DNA of 63,201 nucleotides, counting the filler, from Stramenopiles sp. TOSAG23-2 (lineage: Eukaryota): NCBI GenBank assembly GCA_900128395.1. It is 18 parts of 18 records of this genome, joined end to end, with 100 filler letters (N's around TTAATTAATTAA, not from the genome) between each part and the next. Parts side by side here need not be neighbours in the genome. Positions count along the whole stretch, not along the records: positions 49,300 to 52,707 come from LT651222.1; 17 more parts are not named here. One strand, written 5' to 3'. Shown piece after piece: positions 10,883 through 52,478 of the stretch. The notes below the pieces were generated by a model. It ran no database searches. It had not been told where the DNA came from and was given only the letters and a program-made list of their open reading frames with translations. A program made the position numbers and the translations under genes. Position 1 is the first letter of the stretch; each line of letters begins with the position of its first letter.

Positions 10883-11632
10883 TCAAACTCGATTGACCGA
10901 TTGGCCATTATAATTATTCAAGATATGATGAAAGAAATTATGAAATTTCATTTTATATTCTTGATTATTATTGTTATGATGATTATGATTATTATTAGGA
11001 TCCTTAGCATTATTAATTAATGTGGAAATTTCAATTGCATTGTAAATATTAATGTTTTTCATTGATTGTTTATGTTCTTGTTTTCGTTTATTATTATTTG
11101 CACGATGTTTTGTATTTAATTTATCTAATTTATTTCCAACAAGCAACATTGGGATTTTATTACATATCGTCGATGATTCACCGCCATTTGCGAATGCAAA
11201 TTCGTCAATCCATTTAAATAAATTAGAAAATGATCGATTGTTGGATAAATCATGAACCAATAGAATAGCATTGATATCATAAGTATAAAATACACTACGA
11301 CTGGCGGCATATCCATGTGAACCACCACCGATATCTATAAATTCAATTAAACATTTTCTATTTCTACCTGTGGAAGAGGATTCAAAAATAATTGCTTCTA
11401 AATGACAACCAACCGTCCACCCACTGGAAGCAAATTCTCCACTTTTATCGCAAAGATAATTGACAACAGATGTTTTTCCAACACCACTATCTCCAAGTAA
11501 TAATATTCTAATTGTTTGCATACCATTATCGTCCGATAAATTTAAATTATTATTCAAATTGTTGTTATTATTATTATTATAATTACTATTACTACCTGAG
11601 GTACGTCGTACTGTAAATGGTGAATTCATCAT
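10883..11632 (-). CDS. RABL3: Rab-like protein 3 small GTPase
   Basis: GDSGVGKT P-loop, WTVGC, DIGG in place of DTAGQ, RSVFY, VHDLSNNRS and GNKLD; no prenylation motif. First ATG is at 11632. Confidence 0.8.
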   Translation of the reverse strand: MMNSPFTVRRTSGSNSNYNNNNNNNLNNNLNLSDDNGMQTIRILLLGDSGVGKTSVVNYLCDKSGEFASSGWTVGCHLEAIIFESSSTGRNRKCLIEFIDIGGGSHGYAASRSVFYTYDINAILLVHDLSNNRSFSNLFKWIDEFAFANGGESSTICNKIPMLLVGNKLDKLNTKHRANNNKRKQEHKQSMKNINIYNAIEISTLINNAKDPNNNHNHHNNNNQEYKMKFHNFFHHILNNYNGQSVNRV

Positions 11633-12455
11633 CTTGTTATCGAAAAACAATGTTGCAAAATGGAATTATTGTTATTATTGTTACCACAAAAACAATTAAA
11701 AATAATAAATGAATGTAAATAAGGAATACTATTATTACTACTACGAATATACCAAAACATACATCAACACATCAATATAATTTCTTTGAAACTTTTTTAT
11801 GCCTATAAGAAGTTGCCCAAAATTTGCAAAACACAACAAGAATATAGCATAGACATAGTATTAGTTCAGTAAGTAACATAGACACAACAGGTGTTACGAT
11901 GTAGGCTGTTTAAGAAGTTGATAGGGCTTGGACCAAATAGGATATCTTACTATACTTTCTGTGCATAATATTCCTTCACAGCTGTAATGCTATGTCGATG
12001 TATTATAATATTGAACCAGTTTCTTTTTTGGTTTGTACTTGGTTTTTGGCAAATTTGGCACTTTGCGACGCGAAGAAAAAATTGAAAACAAAACGTTGAA
12101 ATGATATACCTGGTACCATAGCCATACGCCTGGAAACAAATAGACGCATTTTTACCAGTGCACAACAACGACTTTTATACCTTTCAAATATATATATATT
12201 ATCACATACACAGAAAGAGAACAAAGAAAGAAAAGAAAAAACAAAGAAACATTTATAAATACTTTTTTTACAATCATCTTACCAATAACACAGGAAAAAC
12301 GAATAAAAAAAGCGTATATATTATACATTCTCCAGTTTTATTCATTTGATTTTTCTTATCTTTTCTTCTTCTTTTTCTTTGATTGAAATTTATTATAGTA
12401 TTTATACAAAGAACAACATATATACTACACACATAATCTTTATTTTAGTATTATT

Positions 12456-32060: not shown

Positions 32061-32533
32061 TGGTAAAAGTAGTAATTTAATGTGTGTTTTCTAGGATGGG
32101 AAATCAGCTCGTCACTTATTCAACCGAATGTGTGGCGGATTTGTGGCAGCGATGAGTTCCCGGTAGCGAGAGTGAATATCGGAATATGCGCACTATTTCG
32201 GAAGGCCGGAACTGGTTCATATCCTTATTCATGTCAGCTAATATATTAATAGAGCATTACATAGCACGGAAATACCAAGAGACCGAAATTACAAAACTAA
32301 TAGATAATATATACACAGCACTATTACATCATGATTACTTCACACATATTTTTTTTCCGGAATAGTGCGTATTTTGGTGGATTTGGAGCAAAGCAAACCA
32401 ACATATATACTTTACCGTGTGTGATAAAAGAGAAAGGTGTGGAAGGGGAAGGCGCATTCATATATATATATAGATCAACATTTTTGAACAAAAAAGAATC
32501 AATACAAATCAATACGACAAAATTCAATACAAA

Positions 32534-33379
32534 ATGTTTACAAAATCAACCCTTTTAAAACGCGCAATTACAAATAATGCACGTACTTGCTTCTTTTCCA
32601 CAGGACGTACACCAATTGTTGGTGGAAATTGGAAATTAAATGCTGGTAATGGTACTACATATTCCGAAGTGGAAACGTTAGTAAATGATTTAAACAACGC
32701 ACCAACACCAAAAACAAATGTAGAAATCATATGTGCACCACCAGCATTGTATTTAGATCGTGTCAACCAAGGATTGGATTCAAGTAAATTTAGTGTCTCT
32801 GCACAAAATTGTTATCATGAAAACAAAGGTGCATATACTGGTGAAAATTCTGCAACTATGTTGAAAGATTTAAATATTAATTGGACTTTAATTGGACATT
32901 CAGAAAGACGTGATATCTTTAGTGAAACTGATGATATGTTGGAGAAAAAAATAACTACGGCATTGGATGAGAATTTATCTGTAATTGCATGTTGTGGTGA
33001 ACATAAAGAAGATCGTGAAAATGGCACGACTATGAATGTATTGATTCCACAATTACAAGCTATGGTAAACGGCGTTGCAAATTCTTCCAGTAAATCATGG
33101 GATAATGTCGTTATTGCATATGAACCTGTCTGGGCAATTGGTACTGGTTTAACTGCAACACCAGAACAAGCACAAGAAACACATTTGAACATACGTACAT
33201 GGTTAAAAGAAAACGTTAGCGAATCTGTTGCCAATGCTGTACGTATTCAATACGGTGGTAGTGTAAATGATGAAAATGCAAAAGAATTAGGTAATATGGC
33301 AGATATTGATGGATTTTTAGTTGGTGGTGCATCATTAGATGCAGGTAAATTTAGTACCATTTACCATGCTTTCGATTGA
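32534..33379 (+). CDS. TPI: Triosephosphate isomerase with a mitochondrial-type presequence
   Basis: GGNWK, GHSERR, AYEPVWAIGTG and LVGGASL motifs; N-terminus MFTKSTLLKRAITNNARTCFFST is basic, S/T-rich and has no acidic residues. Confidence 0.96.
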   Translation: MFTKSTLLKRAITNNARTCFFSTGRTPIVGGNWKLNAGNGTTYSEVETLVNDLNNAPTPKTNVEIICAPPALYLDRVNQGLDSSKFSVSAQNCYHENKGAYTGENSATMLKDLNINWTLIGHSERRDIFSETDDMLEKKITTALDENLSVIACCGEHKEDRENGTTMNVLIPQLQAMVNGVANSSSKSWDNVVIAYEPVWAIGTGLTATPEQAQETHLNIRTWLKENVSESVANAVRIQYGGSVNDENAKELGNMADIDGFLVGGASLDAGKFSTIYHAFD

Positions 33380-33723
33380 AATATTATTTTTTTTTAAAAT
33401 CTTCTGAAAGACACACATGTGATCTTTGTTGAGAGATGCGAGAGTAAGAAATATAAGATGTGTGTGACGTGTATGTGTGTATGAACTGGGATAAAGTTAT
33501 TCGTAAAACATCATAATATACTCGTATAAATTAAAATTTTTACAGTGTTTTTTTTAAAAACCCTCACATTGTAGTGTTACCTCTATTATGACGACGATGG
33601 TGATGATGATCTGGATTATTGTTATCCCGTATAATCAATTGGATCTTGCCAAGATAGTAAATACATTCTAAATATGCTACTATACTGGTAGTTATCCATT
33701 TTGAATTTTCATATTTTACGTCA

Positions 33724-33741
33724 TAACCCTAACCCTAACCC
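33724..33741. repeat. Interstitial telomere-like (TAACCC)3
   Basis: Exact TAACCCTAACCCTAACCC. Confidence 0.7.
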
Positions 33742-33976
33742 AATCATCCCCTCGCTGAAAATGTACATCAAATACAACTATATATACAAGGAAATGCCAG
33801 AGAGAGACGGTGTTTGTTGTAAACATTTTAAAAGAAACAACAAAATAACCTTTTTTTTTTATTATTTTCTATAGACATCAAGAAATATATATATATATAT
33901 CGTTTTCAATACAAAAAGATATACTTAACAAAACAATTTTTTTAGAATAAATTTTTACATTCACATTTTTAATTAA

Positions 33977-34996
<1,020 letters not shown>

Positions 34997-47793: not shown

Positions 47794-48708
47794 ATGGAAA
47801 ACACAGTGTTGTTATTGAAAAATCAACAACCAAATGATAAATATATTAGTGAAGGAAAGTTACATGGTTTTAATGTATCTTGTTTGCCTTTATTCCAATT
47901 TGAATATGAAAATATAGATTCAATTGGAGATATATTACAACGTATGATTGGCCAAGCGTCGTCATCATCTTTTTTTGGAATCATTTTTACTAGCCCTCGT
48001 GCAATAAAAGCATTTCAAATGGCAATGGATTCTGACACCAATTTGTTTTCAATTATTATTACTAAGAATATTATTTTATATTGTCTAGGAGAATCATCTT
48101 CAAACAAACTTATTAAATGTTTCGAGGGTGATAGCCAATGTCCAATAATCAAAGGCCGAGAAAGTAACAATGCGAAGGAATTAGCACATTTTATCTTAGA
48201 TGATTTAAAATGTAACAATACAAATGATAGTGGTGAAACTTTACAGGATCATTTGAAAGAGAAACAGCTATTATATTTGTGTGGAGCAACACGTCGAGAT
48301 GAATTACCAACCATATTAAGTTCTCAAAAAGGATTATTATTAAAGTTAAATGAACTTATTGTATATAAATCTGTACCCATACCAAATGTAAATTTTCCAA
48401 AGTATGACAATTTACCGAAATGGATGGTATTCTTTAGTCCAAATGGTGTAGATATTATTGTGAATTTATTACTTGGAAAAGATAATGTAAAATATAATGG
48501 TGAAAAAGAAGAAGAAAGAAATAGTGTGAAGAATGATAATAACAATAATAATATATTTTCCAAAATGAAAATTGTTGCGATTGGTCAAACTACGAAAAAA
48601 CGTCTTGAAATGCATAATATAATTGTAAATAAATGTCCATCTAAACCAAATGCATCTTCGTTGTTTCTTGAATTAGTTGGAGGCGAGGGAAAGATGACGA
48701 AGAAGTAA
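47794..48708 (+). CDS. UROS: Uroporphyrinogen-III synthase
   Basis: GIIFTSPRAI, LYLCGATRRDELP, VFFSPNGV, VAIGQTT and KPNA motifs; 3' end duplicated with a 104-bp period (48622-48835). Confidence 0.9.
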   Translation: MENTVLLLKNQQPNDKYISEGKLHGFNVSCLPLFQFEYENIDSIGDILQRMIGQASSSSFFGIIFTSPRAIKAFQMAMDSDTNLFSIIITKNIILYCLGESSSNKLIKCFEGDSQCPIIKGRESNNAKELAHFILDDLKCNNTNDSGETLQDHLKEKQLLYLCGATRRDELPTILSSQKGLLLKLNELIVYKSVPIPNVNFPKYDNLPKWMVFFSPNGVDIIVNLLLGKDNVKYNGEKEEERNSVKNDNNNNNIFSKMKIVAIGQTTKKRLEMHNIIVNKCPSKPNASSLFLELVGGEGKMTKK

Positions 48709-49299
48709 CAACTTAATAAATAAAGATTGTAAATAAATGTCCATCTAAACCAAATGCATCTTCGTTGTTTCTTGAATTAGTTGGAGGCGAGGGAAAGATG
48801 ACGAAGAAGTAACAACTTAATAAATAAAGATTGTATTTATGTACTTTGTACATATCCCTTACACATCTGTTTACCGTGTGGTTTATCCTCTTGCTTTGAT
48901 CTATCTCAACTTTTTTCTTCACAACAATCATTCAATCAAAAAAGTATACATTAACATATATATCGATATATAATTCAGAATAATATTAAACAAACAAAAT
49001 AAAACCCGTATATATATTATATAATATTAGACTTGTAAAACAGACATATATACACACTTCAAATACACCCAAGGATATTCGACCCATAGCAAAAAGCAAT
49101 TGTCGAATAAAATTATATCAATAATAAAGCATACTGTATATATAAATAAAAACATATTATCATACACAACAAATAACAATATAAGCAATAATGCAATCAN
49201 NNNNNNNNNNNNNNNNNNNNNNNNNNNNNNNNNNNNNNNNNNNTTAATTAATTAANNNNNNNNNNNNNNNNNNNNNNNNNNNNNNNNNNNNNNNNNNNN

Positions 49300-49445
49300 G
49301 ATACTATCTATTTACCTTCATTGGTATTTTCGATTATGAGAATATCAACACACTTGTGTGAGATAGATTATTTCAGTTATTTTATTCTTTTGAAGAGTAG
49401 GAATTATCATGAGTAAATTAAAAATAAATTATGCGTAAATTAAAT
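49300..49445 (+). repeat. Dispersed repeat family A copy
   Basis: ATCTATTTACCT, GTGAGATAGATT, CAGTTATT and GAGTAGGAATTATCATGAGTAAATTAA shared with the 17672 copy. Confidence 0.85.
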
Positions 49446-49460
49446 ATATAAGATATATAT

Positions 49461-49664
49461 AAGAATTCGAAACGTGCAACTGCTATGTTGAATTATGTTA
49501 ATTGGGGCCCACCTGGCTGCGGAAAATCACACACTGTCGAACAAGACGTGGCAAAGTTAATAGCTGATAATCCGCACCTCAGAGTTTATTATAAAACGAT
49601 TCAGAAATGGTGGGATGGATATGATGGAGAAGAAATCGTCGTACATTTATACGAATCGTATTAA
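49461..49664 (+). pseudogene. rep: Endogenous CRESS-DNA virus (circovirus-like) Rep SF3 helicase fragment
   Basis: Translates to KRATAMLNYVNWGPPGCGKSHT...VYYKTIQKWWDGYDGEEIVV; Walker A plus the WWDGY.GEE motif; similarity ends just before the Walker B DD. Confidence 0.85.
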
Positions 49665-49700
49665 AAATTTTTAAATATAATATTACAATATTATAAATTT

Positions 49701-50909
49701 TTATACAATTGGTAAGCCCTGCGTTGATTTTTTTCTTCTTATATTTTGATCTCTTCGTTTCATCATTTCTTCCTCTTGAAATTTTCGATTTAACTCTGCT
49801 TTTTTCTCAGCACTCATTTCTTGAGGACCTTCTGCTTGTTGTTTTTCATATAACTCATTCAATTCTTGCTCTTCTCTTAATCGCGCAGCTTCAGCTTCTT
49901 CTAAATATTTTCTCTCCGCTTCTTCTCTTTCTTGCTGTTCTTTCAATGCTTGATTATAGTCTTCCTCTTCCTTTTGTTGCATTAAATCTCCATGCCAATC
50001 TTCGTAATCATGTTCCGTAATAGTCTCACCACGTGCAATTGCTTCCATTTTTGCATTGATTTGTGCTTGTAACTTTTCCATAGCATCTGTGTTATTTATC
50101 AAATCTAATTGTTTTTCTCGTTCCTCTAATTGTTCCCGTTGTTTCAATTCATCATAATATTTAATTCGTTTTCTTTCTTCTATTTCATCATAAATATGAT
50201 TTAATAATTTTCTAAATTGACCTTTTACGTCTTTAGCAGCAAGTGCAACTTGATTAAATGGTTTTGGATTTCGATCTATGGCATCTTTACAAATTTGTAC
50301 CATATTACGACCATATCCATCTAAAACACTTATGTCAAATTCAATTTCATGGTTCTTATCAAACAATATCTTTAACATTTCTGGAGGGTGGGCGTTTTGA
50401 CATATTACATGCCCGACAGTCATATGATTAGGTCCAAGCAGATTAAAATCACAACCTTTCTGTACTAATAATTTAAAAATGTCGATGTAACCAAATTCAG
50501 CAGCCGTAAACAAAGGGGTAAAATTATCCATGCATTTATCATAATGTATGTCTGCCCCACTTTCTATTAAAAATTCAACGGTTTCTAAACTTCCACTAGT
50601 TATAGCATATAACAATGGTGTCCGCAGTATATCATCTGTTTCATTTACATCATCTCCAGCATTTATAAGCGCTTCAACAGCTTGAAGTTTACCATGTATT
50701 GCAGCAACGTGTAGCCAAGTACGACGAAAAATTTTCTTCGGTCCACCCTCGACATACTTTTTTGGTTCCTTTATAATTTGTTTTAGTAAATCAAATATTT
50801 CTAACTTTAGTGCCTCCGTCCTTGGTTTTAGTGACGTTGTACGTATTGCATCTGCACGTGTTGTTTCAGCTCGAAAAACATGTTCAGTTGCACCATGTTT
50901 CTTCGACAT
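49701..50909 (-). CDS. Ankyrin repeat protein with an E-rich coiled-coil C-terminus
   Basis: TWLHVAA..G, TPLLYA..G and TPLFTAA..G repeats. Confidence 0.88.
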   Translation of the reverse strand: MSKKHGATEHVFRAETTRADAIRTTSLKPRTEALKLEIFDLLKQIIKEPKKYVEGGPKKIFRRTWLHVAAIHGKLQAVEALINAGDDVNETDDILRTPLLYAITSGSLETVEFLIESGADIHYDKCMDNFTPLFTAAEFGYIDIFKLLVQKGCDFNLLGPNHMTVGHVICQNAHPPEMLKILFDKNHEIEFDISVLDGYGRNMVQICKDAIDRNPKPFNQVALAAKDVKGQFRKLLNHIYDEIEERKRIKYYDELKQREQLEEREKQLDLINNTDAMEKLQAQINAKMEAIARGETITEHDYEDWHGDLMQQKEEEDYNQALKEQQEREEAERKYLEEAEAARLREEQELNELYEKQQAEGPQEMSAEKKAELNRKFQEEEMMKRRDQNIRRKKSTQGLPIV

Positions 50910-51150
50910 GATGTTATAATGTTTCTTCTGACAATGCTTTGATCGTTCAGTTTATTATATATAATTAGGATGTAGAATTACACTGTTACAGCGTTTACTT
51001 ATATATATATATATATAATAGTCGTCTATTATATAAAATAGGTTTTCGAAATTCGAAGTAAGTGTATAATAAAAGTAAAAGTGCAATAATCATAATATAA
51101 GTAACGCTTCCTTTTATTACTGTACCTTACTCGTTGCTCACTCCAAATTT

Positions 51151-52478
51151 GATCACAGAATCTGTGATTGTGCTATGCTGTGTCCATGGGGAAATGTATC
51201 TTAAAAACACCAAAATGCAACGACACTTCATACATGGGAATATCACTACGCCATCACAGATTCTGTGATGAAAGCAACATCTCGTCACAGATTCTGTGAT
51301 CAATCACAGAATCTGTGATGGCATCGTGCTATTCCCATGTATGAAATTTAATAAAAATCTACTATGAACATACCATTACAATATCACAGAATCTGTGAAA
51401 GTTTTTCACCAAAAAGTTTTAGTCAAATAGGCATTTTTACATCCAAATTTATTAGTATACTATCTATACCTTTTAAGTACAAAATAGTTAAGGAAAATAC
51501 AGAATTTTCTTCCATATTTCTAATTAAAAAAATTGAGATTAGTGATACCCAAAAATTTTATACTTAAAATATCCATATTAGTAGTCTAAAAATTTGATTT
51601 TAAAACCTATTTTGCAAAATATTTATTTCATATTTCAAAAATTTCCGACATAATAAATTTGTTATAAGAAAACATGGCATCACTTACATAAACATTTGAT
51701 AGAACACGTAATTCAAATTTAGAACCAATAAAACTCTATATATAAAATATTTATATATATTTGTATACAATTAAACTACTATTCAAATATTTAGATTAAA
51801 ATTATGATTAGCTTGAACATTTCAAAGTCTTTGATAATTCTAGTCTAATGCTATTTCAATGCTATTTTTAGCATCATAATAACACTAACAATGCTATTTA
51901 TATACTAACACAACAATACATAACAGCTCTTTGTAAAATGTACACACCGATGCAATATGATATATAAAGCTTTAATGAATTAAAATATATATATTCTAGC
52001 AATATCGATTGATATAAAGTCATAATTTGAATTTTGAGTATGTTTTTTTTATGTTGTATGTTTAGCAATTTTTACAAAATTTGTAACACTATTTCCCTGC
52101 TAGAACTTTTTTGTGTGTATGCTGGCACAAACTTAGTGCTATTGCATCGTAATTTGCTGTTTTGAACAATTACTCAGTAAATGATTAGAAACAACCATTC
52201 CAACATGTATATTATATATATTTTTGTACATCCCTTTTTGGTTTTTTATTAGCAGATATGTATGCCAAATATGTTAATGTAAAAAGGGAGGCACAAATTC
52301 AAATACGAGTTATTTTATGTTTAATTATATGTTGTATCTTTAAATTGACTGAATATTTGGATGAATGGGTATTTAACTTCAAGTTTTTGTTGTAGAAAAG
52401 CGTGTTTAGTACCTTTTTTTTGTTCATTTTTTCCTTACAATGAACACAGCATTACAGCCCGTCACAGATTCTGTGATC
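51151..52478. mobile_element. Putative non-autonomous TIR element with repeated palindrome TCACAGAWTCTGTGA
   Basis: About 40-bp imperfect terminal inverted repeats, an internal hairpin with 43-bp arms, and no long ORF. Confidence 0.6.

Follow-up and report, generated by a model that had tools for sequence, protein, structure and literature searches.

A 180-nt piece of the Rep gene of a CRESS-DNA virus is lodged beside a host gene in the genome of the marine stramenopile TOSAG23-2. The insertion recurs in several datasets, its donor falls in a clade of ~4-kb viruses, and further pieces of that clade occur elsewhere in the same genome. We consider it probable that the fragment is a non-functional relic of a virus clade with MAST-4 as its host, taken up during repair of a chromosome break. 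The element itself is ordinary, and its value lies in the host link: most marine CRESS viruses have unknown hosts, this donor lineage has so far been seen only in seawater sequence data, and the pieces point to a probable host.

A truncated viral Rep gene

The window, the whole 63,201-nucleotide stretch of DNA that was analyzed, is a chain of unrelated ~3.4-kb contigs of one genome assembly (G000; 32.8 Mb, 9,146 contigs). Because the contigs are joined by N-linkers, the sequence left of position 49300, where the 3.4-kb contig C5478 starts, is no true neighbor of the viral fragment, which lies 164 nt from the contig end. The features of the locus are:

49200..49299: N-linker between unrelated contigs; like linkers recur about every 3.5 kb
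49300..~49450: high-copy host repeat, truncated by the start of the contig so that its 3' part is left
49451..49463: left-junction spacer of A and T only, differing in length between alleles
49464..49643, + strand: endogenous CRESS-DNA virus Rep fragment (part of the SF3 helicase that starts shortly before Walker A and stops short of Walker B), by DNA and protein matches
49485..49664, + strand: 59-codon ORF starting at an internal Rep methionine, with six non-viral residues at its end
49506..49529, + strand: Walker A motif GPPGCGKS
49605..49643, + strand: KWWDGYDGEEIVV, ending directly before the Walker B acidic pair
49644..49700: right flank, rich in AT (10.5% GC); alleles differ here by small indels
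49678-49686: chance TAATATTAC in the right flank
49701..50909, - strand: host ankyrin-repeat gene, 402 aa (Ank_2, E 1e-21), 3' end toward the viral piece

The plus-strand frame 49452-49661 is open over 70 codons and reads as the initial annotation described it, with WGPPGCGKS, YYK, and KWWDGYDGEEIVV in turn. Against Pfam PF00910 this frame reaches 33 bits, above the cut-off of 21.5 (E 9e-8). In the PDB, two Rep chains of viruses match it best (E 1e-5 and 3e-5), and cellular AAA+ proteins, the other candidate source of such a peptide, appear only at E >= 0.29. Homology to the closest virus ends with two valines, immediately short of the acidic pair of Walker B, where a truncation had been placed. 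From the SF3 set of Walker A, Walker B, motif C, and arginine finger, the fragment retains Walker A only, and it contains no HUH part (as had been noted), no origin, and no A-tail. It cannot act as a helicase, because everything from Walker B onward is missing, and it cannot move itself, because it has neither an HUH domain nor an origin. The 59-codon ORF is probably not a working gene.

The element was originally delimited as 49461..49664, and its viral part spans about 49464-49643, with the left end uncertain by a few bases; positions 49644-49664 are non-viral flank. It was also described as an island of higher GC content, and at 41.7% GC it does stand out from its immediate flanks (7% and 10.5%), but GC content alone is a weak signal, because 4.6% of the 2,890 windows of 180 nt in the stretch reach that value.

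Integration beside an ankyrin-repeat gene

The fragment is almost certainly integrated in the host genome. The ankyrin-repeat gene ends with its stop codon 57 nt from the viral piece on the opposite strand, and its protein belongs to a cluster of 33 members, one of which is a EukProt gene model and one of which is encoded on an 83-kb contig. We compared four (X2, X3, X5, and X14) of 24 listed sequencing runs with the locus. X2, a run from the organism, yields one contig over 49444-49772 with 0 differences and equal depths on insert and host gene (5.7 vs 5.65). X5, a marine metagenome from another study, yields one contig over 49453-49688, also with 0 differences; its depth is 4.5 on the insert vs 7.0 on the gene, a gap that could hint at empty alleles, though contig depth gives no share of cells. 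The right junction is thus bridged in two of the four runs; in X3 and X14, neither the insert nor the bulk of the ankyrin gene is covered by any contig. By a 31-letter bridging rule, the left junction is covered too briefly in X2 (20 letters) and X5 (11 letters), and is bridged in L077 only.

L077 (MDTB01000802.1) is the one locus that the ankyrin C-terminus, as a metagenome query, recovered from 335 candidate stretches. The 180 nt are the same there (0 differences) and lie between the ankyrin gene and a second host gene, with 1.4 kb of host sequence on each side and with flank indels unlike those of the window allele; since this sole locus was filled, the scan of 335 stretches yielded no empty allele. 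The right junction therefore occurs in runs of two studies and both junctions occur in L077, so that the concern of support from a single amplified library largely falls away, although library methods are unrecorded. Because the same junction recurs on different haplotypes, a chimera is hard to sustain.

Additional alleles are found in protein databases. Seven database sequences on 38 contigs (not all independent, and possibly including the source) share the non-viral tail, and a frameshifted copy of the fragment lies on an 83,378-bp contig, with a member of the ankyrin cluster on an equally long contig. Three database alleles have residue changes in the fragment, one of them inside Walker A, and the upstream frames of P0074 and P0077 differ, reflecting variation at the left junction. 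Fourteen runs of eight studies contain 0.81-0.95 of the words compared; the share without the insert would be ~0.78 at most if words are evenly sampled, and the higher values are no more than a hint that the insert is present in those runs.

Identity of the 180 nt between alleles does not bear on selection: the ankyrin gene itself has 3 differences between the window and L077 in about 1,209 nt, a rate at which 0 of 180 is expected, and purifying selection on the insert is unsupported.

The fragment had been placed between a host repeat and the 3' flank of the ankyrin gene. The gene, on the minus strand, adjoins the fragment in the window and in L077, but the repeat is variable, being present in the window allele and absent from L077; as it is missing there beside the fragment, it is not part of the viral insertion. 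The repeat has at least 47 other matches in G000 (40 of 587 candidates scored), and its copies sit on dozens of contigs of up to 56 kb. Its dispersed copies end at a fixed 3' point, vary in their 5' modules, and are 91-100% identical to one another. We considered the repeat as a carrier of the fragment and rejected it, both because none of 19 copies examined continues into viral DNA after the repeat end and because in L077 the fragment occurs with no such repeat beside it. Integration by Rep at a cryptic origin, suggested by the TAATATTAC 35 nt right of the insert, was likewise rejected: the window has 4 copies of this motif vs 2.57 expected, at least 4 occur in 25 of 100 shuffles, and the copy right of the insert is missing from the L077 allele.

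Two side observations concern the surroundings. A second repeat, with palindromic units, lies at 51124-51400 in the window, and C1819 carries one copy of it at 97%. C4220:4130-4841 (L108) of G000 also contains the 3' end of the gene on the left side of the L077 insert, joined directly to a short signal-peptide-like ORF; most of the middle of that gene is seemingly missing there, as in a deletion allele or an amplification chimera.

The donor clade and its other traces in the host genome

The fragment has few close relatives. Of 1.84 billion protein representatives, three match below 1e-10. Two of these are the fragment itself in frameshifted form, and the third, P0005, is a full Rep. Nine relatives of P0005 are at 52-84% identity and two sisters at 36-38%, followed by a gap; outside this 12-member group, Rep identity is at most 35% (alignments of more than 120 residues). 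The fragment matches the ten clade Reps at 39-50 of 60 residues, with 50 of 60 for both P0005 and P0042, and in a quick tree of 38 rows it joins these ten with SH-aLRT 97 (the fragment fills 14% of columns); the 13-row group has SH-aLRT 99. The viral assignment that had been made from the peptide is thus borne out by both search and placement. Five of the 60 residues are absent from all ten clade Reps, two of them in columns that are invariant there, which fits either decay or an unsampled donor.

The ten clade Reps come from contigs of at most 4.3 kb and carry HxQ, YCxK, Walker A, Walker B, and an arginine-finger-like motif, as expected of a Rep with HUH endonuclease and SF3 helicase parts. 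PF00910 is above cut-off in these Reps and PF02407 is weak (13-15 bits), reaching 26.1 in the sister P0049. The nearest clusters in the Atlas are Cressdnaviricota Reps (score 0.97-0.98). Judged against Reps that bear no family labels, the clade is compact and apparently unclassified; structure matches from BFVD are at 16-25% identity and bear generic names. We note that P0005 (residues ~445-465) and its clade relatives have a long Rep tail with a conserved CxxC...PCYIH, also present in P0049, which is possibly metal-binding.

An IMG/VR scan gave 30 loci, of which two are close, L022/L075 (84% of residues) and L023 (66%); among the matches listed by another IMG/VR scan there are distant Reps only, and queries with P0047 and P0049 gave no further clade genomes there. 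L075 is a 4.2-kb marine virus circle, and the fragment is identical to L022/L075 DNA at 129 of 153 nt (84%); over 61 codons compared with L075 there are 14 silent differences and 14 residue changes, none of the latter in the last 30 codons. Terminal redundancies of 123 and 107 nt in L075 and L023 indicate circles of 4,187 and 4,088 nt, and in both the TAATATTAC sits in the loop of a 10-11-bp stem. Their Reps are about 47% identical. In L022/L075 and in L023, rep and cap lie on the same strand, with Reps of 450-510 aa and capsids of 510-545 aa in the donor clade. Short iterated motifs, seen by eye, follow directly after the capsid gene (L075:2940-3110 and L023:3600-3745) and are possibly iterons.

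The predicted model of capsid P0003 (mean pLDDT 55) matches MSV best among 48,161 chains (Z 9.7, rmsd 3.9, 191 residues aligned), followed by AYVV (Z 8.6) and STNV (Z 8.5), with the circovirus BFDV capsid at Z 5.4, all read from a low-confidence model. Its structure matches in BFVD are CRESS capsids. The donor capsid is, with moderate confidence, a single jelly-roll of geminivirus/STNV-like fold, and the Rep and origin suggest that the donor genome would be single-stranded in virions.

These properties qualify the original description of the fragment as circovirus-like. The motifs fit, as Walker A and KWWDGY align with the Circoviridae Rep in PDB 7lar/8xms, which we take to be that of porcine circovirus. 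Genomes of Circoviridae are about 1.7-2.1 kb with ambisense rep and cap; the donor genomes, unlike these, are about twice as long and unisense. With its 4.1-4.2-kb unisense circles, and a low-confidence capsid model nearer to geminivirus/STNV, the donor is a cressdnaviricot and not a circovirus.

DNA of both available in-clade genomes matches G000 outside Rep, on one contig and eight contigs, respectively. L075 matches C5967:487-565 (L073) at 76 of 79 nt (96%) as a single copy; this piece lies on a 588-bp contig, 23 nt from its end, together with a small ORF. L023 gives 12 matches, the Rep piece plus 11 that are 86-100% identical and distributed over the following contigs:

C626, C305, C5787, C3366, C1482, C1951, C8693, C1565: L023-type hairpin repeat, ~145 nt of hairpin

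The source of both the L075- and the L023-type pieces is a long hairpin in the non-coding DNA that lies upstream of the viral origin (folding z -5.8 and -7.4 in the two viruses), and the two viral hairpins are homologous. In the L023-type host copies both arms equal the virus and the loop differs. Long ORFs adjoin hairpin pieces on several contigs. Four unrelated CRESS-like contigs gave no match to G000 (0/4 at E <= 1), and searches of IMG/VR with two exact hairpin patterns each hit the known genome only. Conserved hairpin structure is unproven by covariation, as the one compensatory pair in 11 is equaled in 102 of 500 shuffles.

On C626, two copies lie head to head in a 579-bp element (11323-11901; L122) whose 29-bp terminal inverted repeats are 93% identical and which has ATA at either edge, and C305 has a similar join. 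The C626 element is like a small foldback or MITE-type element, with the reservation that it is one case and that inverted pairs can be amplification artifacts. We favor transfer of the hairpin from virus to host, because it holds the same place in two viruses that are so divergent in Rep; transfer from host to virus would also need host and virus to meet in one cell.

Searches for other Rep or capsid pieces in G000, which had been suggested as a check, gave none beyond the window locus with the queries used, and it was the non-coding DNA that revealed further clade pieces. Two Rep queries recovered no full Rep and only the window locus, two capsid queries recovered nothing, and donor DNA queries did not find the rest of the virus genome. 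A PF00910 scan of G000 gave 33 matches, among which a clade Rep query recovers only the window locus; a PF02407 scan gave 0 matches, with controls also silent and clade Reps below cut-off.

Host, route of capture, and competing explanations

The single 18S match in G000 (L076) contains the NS4 probe site with 0 mismatches, and this probe targets MAST-4 (PMC9303649). We infer the MAST-4 label of C5478 from this one site, which is on another contig. The genes of the window are eukaryotic, with the ciliary FAP206 family among them. MAST-4 engulfs particles and may eat viruses (PMC8237690), and because the host is a particle-eating flagellate, the host link proposed in the initial annotation remains one that we infer, even as it gains support from the clade hairpin pieces elsewhere in G000.

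The most probable course of events is that a MAST-4-type marine stramenopile was infected by a ~4-kb circular ssDNA virus of this clade (Cressdnaviricota, with no close named relative found), and that during infection a 180-nt piece from mid-Rep was patched into the AT-rich spacer between two converging host genes. The most likely route would be end-joining repair of a chromosome break, a capture that fits because the piece is from mid-gene, has no origin or A-tail, and lies in an AT-rich spacer. The single insertion would then have been inherited and now be common in the species. That a virus of the clade infects this host we regard as likely. A fuller combined reading, in which an undescribed family-level lineage of ~4-kb CRESS viruses infects MAST-4 and has left DNA at least three times, with the hairpin piece being a mobile foldback repeat or a host-virus mover, is tentative and commands slightly less than even credence from us.

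The alternative that survives best, although unlikely, is that integration is real and the source was food: a virus of other plankton would have been ingested and captured at chromosome breaks, so that the pieces record diet. As a phagotroph, MAST-4 may also feed on non-infective viruses (PMC8237690), and ingestion rather than infection has been argued for CRESS DNA in protist single cells, where near-identical CRESS genomes occur in cells of different phyla (PMC7541821). The presence in G000 of short pieces only, with no whole virus genome, is also in keeping with food. However, indiscriminate feeding should sample many lineages, and all of the pieces come from one small clade (2/2 genomes match vs 0/4 unrelated contigs, four controls being a small test), with only this locus recovered by a clade Rep query among the 33 PF00910 matches. 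An inherited insertion in independent datasets, together with further clade pieces, makes ingestion much harder as an explanation, and infection is the source of the DNA that we prefer.

A second possibility, quite improbable, is that the locus is giant-virus DNA, free or endogenous, or DNA of a co-assembled other organism, rather than part of the MAST-4 nucleus. C5478 is only 3.4 kb, and ankyrin genes are common in giant viruses. Yet this contig opens in a repeat common to dozens of G000 contigs of up to 56 kb and has (TA)n-rich spacers, the ankyrin cluster includes both the EukProt gene model and the member on an 83-kb contig, and hairpin pieces lie beside other long ORFs on several contigs.

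We give marginally less weight still to retention for a function, whether through antisense read-through from the ankyrin gene into antiviral small RNAs or through a 59-codon interfering peptide. Its place 57 nt past the stop of the ankyrin gene, which reads from the other strand, would suit the former, the sequence is identical in the window, X2, X5, and L077, and small RNAs cover CRESS elements in Entamoeba (PMC7493932). Against this, zero differences are expected given 3 in ~1,209 nt of the ankyrin gene, and three database alleles have residue changes, one in Walker A; a lack of function is also suggested because Walker B onward is gone and 5 of 60 residues lie outside all ten Reps. Finally, an amplification or assembly chimera of a free ssDNA virus with host DNA, for which the fragmented assembly (9,146 contigs), the preference of phi29 amplification for ssDNA circles (PMC7541821), and the location 164 nt from a contig end could speak, is largely refuted by the same right junction in X2, X5 (another study), and L077 with differing flanks, by insert depth equal to host-gene depth in X2, and by failure to find the remaining virus genome in G000.

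CRESS insertions in protists are already known, and the new element in the relic of infection that we favor is the virus-host link for MAST-4. Blastocystis, one of the known carriers, is also a heterotrophic stramenopile. Endogenous elements have been described for Naryaviridae and Nenyaviridae in Entamoeba and Vilyaviridae in Giardia (PMC7493932), and for CRESSV1 (pecoviruses) in Blastocystis (PMC9615429); there, as here, Rep-derived DNA nests in one exogenous lineage and is used to name a host. In contrast to those gut protists, our host lives free in the sea as an uncultured grazer, its Rep piece is 180 nt and single-copy and is linked by sequence, and most other traces are non-coding hairpin that protein searches miss. 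Rep-like insertions are reported across eukaryotes, including Blastocystis and the diatom Phaeodactylum (PMC3198968); these too are Rep fragments of circular ssDNA viruses in non-coding host regions, and some are linked to transposon-like repeats with terminal inverted repeats, although the multi-copy part in our case is viral non-coding DNA and not Rep. The host table in the available part of that paper has no MAST lineages.

Other Rep-bearing ssDNA viruses are tied to stramenopiles, namely Bacilladnaviridae, Oomyviridae (through endogenous elements), and HthCRESSV1, whose hosts, unlike ours, are diatoms and oomycetes (bioRxiv 10.64898/2026.04.22.720165). By their description there, Oomyviridae are linear, whereas L075 and L023 are of circle type, with terminal redundancy and a nonanucleotide stem-loop. 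Among the titles and abstracts searched, none places a CRESS element or virus in MAST-4, and none came to light in the accessible main text of PMC8237690, PMC3998028, and PMC13724720 (MAST-4 genomes), PMC10120064 (a protist EVE survey), or PMC12911909 (a 2026 review).

If the link is true, a free-living heterotrophic flagellate of the sea would have its first ssDNA virus, and non-coding virus DNA could reveal hosts that are barely detectable by Rep searches. MAST-4 is one of the ocean's widespread uncultured bacterivores, and the link would place such a grazer, out of reach of culture, under additional top-down control; it names a specific pair of virus clade and host that is testable. Two other datasets could overlap with ours: Castillo et al. 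(2019) reportedly described viral contigs in uncultured picoeukaryote single cells, and Zhao et al. are said to have surveyed CRESS elements across eukaryotes.

We note two features elsewhere in the window. Within a single contig, at 32474-34996, reading frames for triosephosphate isomerase and GAPDH follow each other on the same strand; stramenopiles are known to have a fused TPI-GAPDH. At 48599-48831, the 3' end of a HemD-like gene is seemingly duplicated in tandem (~100 nt, by eye) right after the stop codon.
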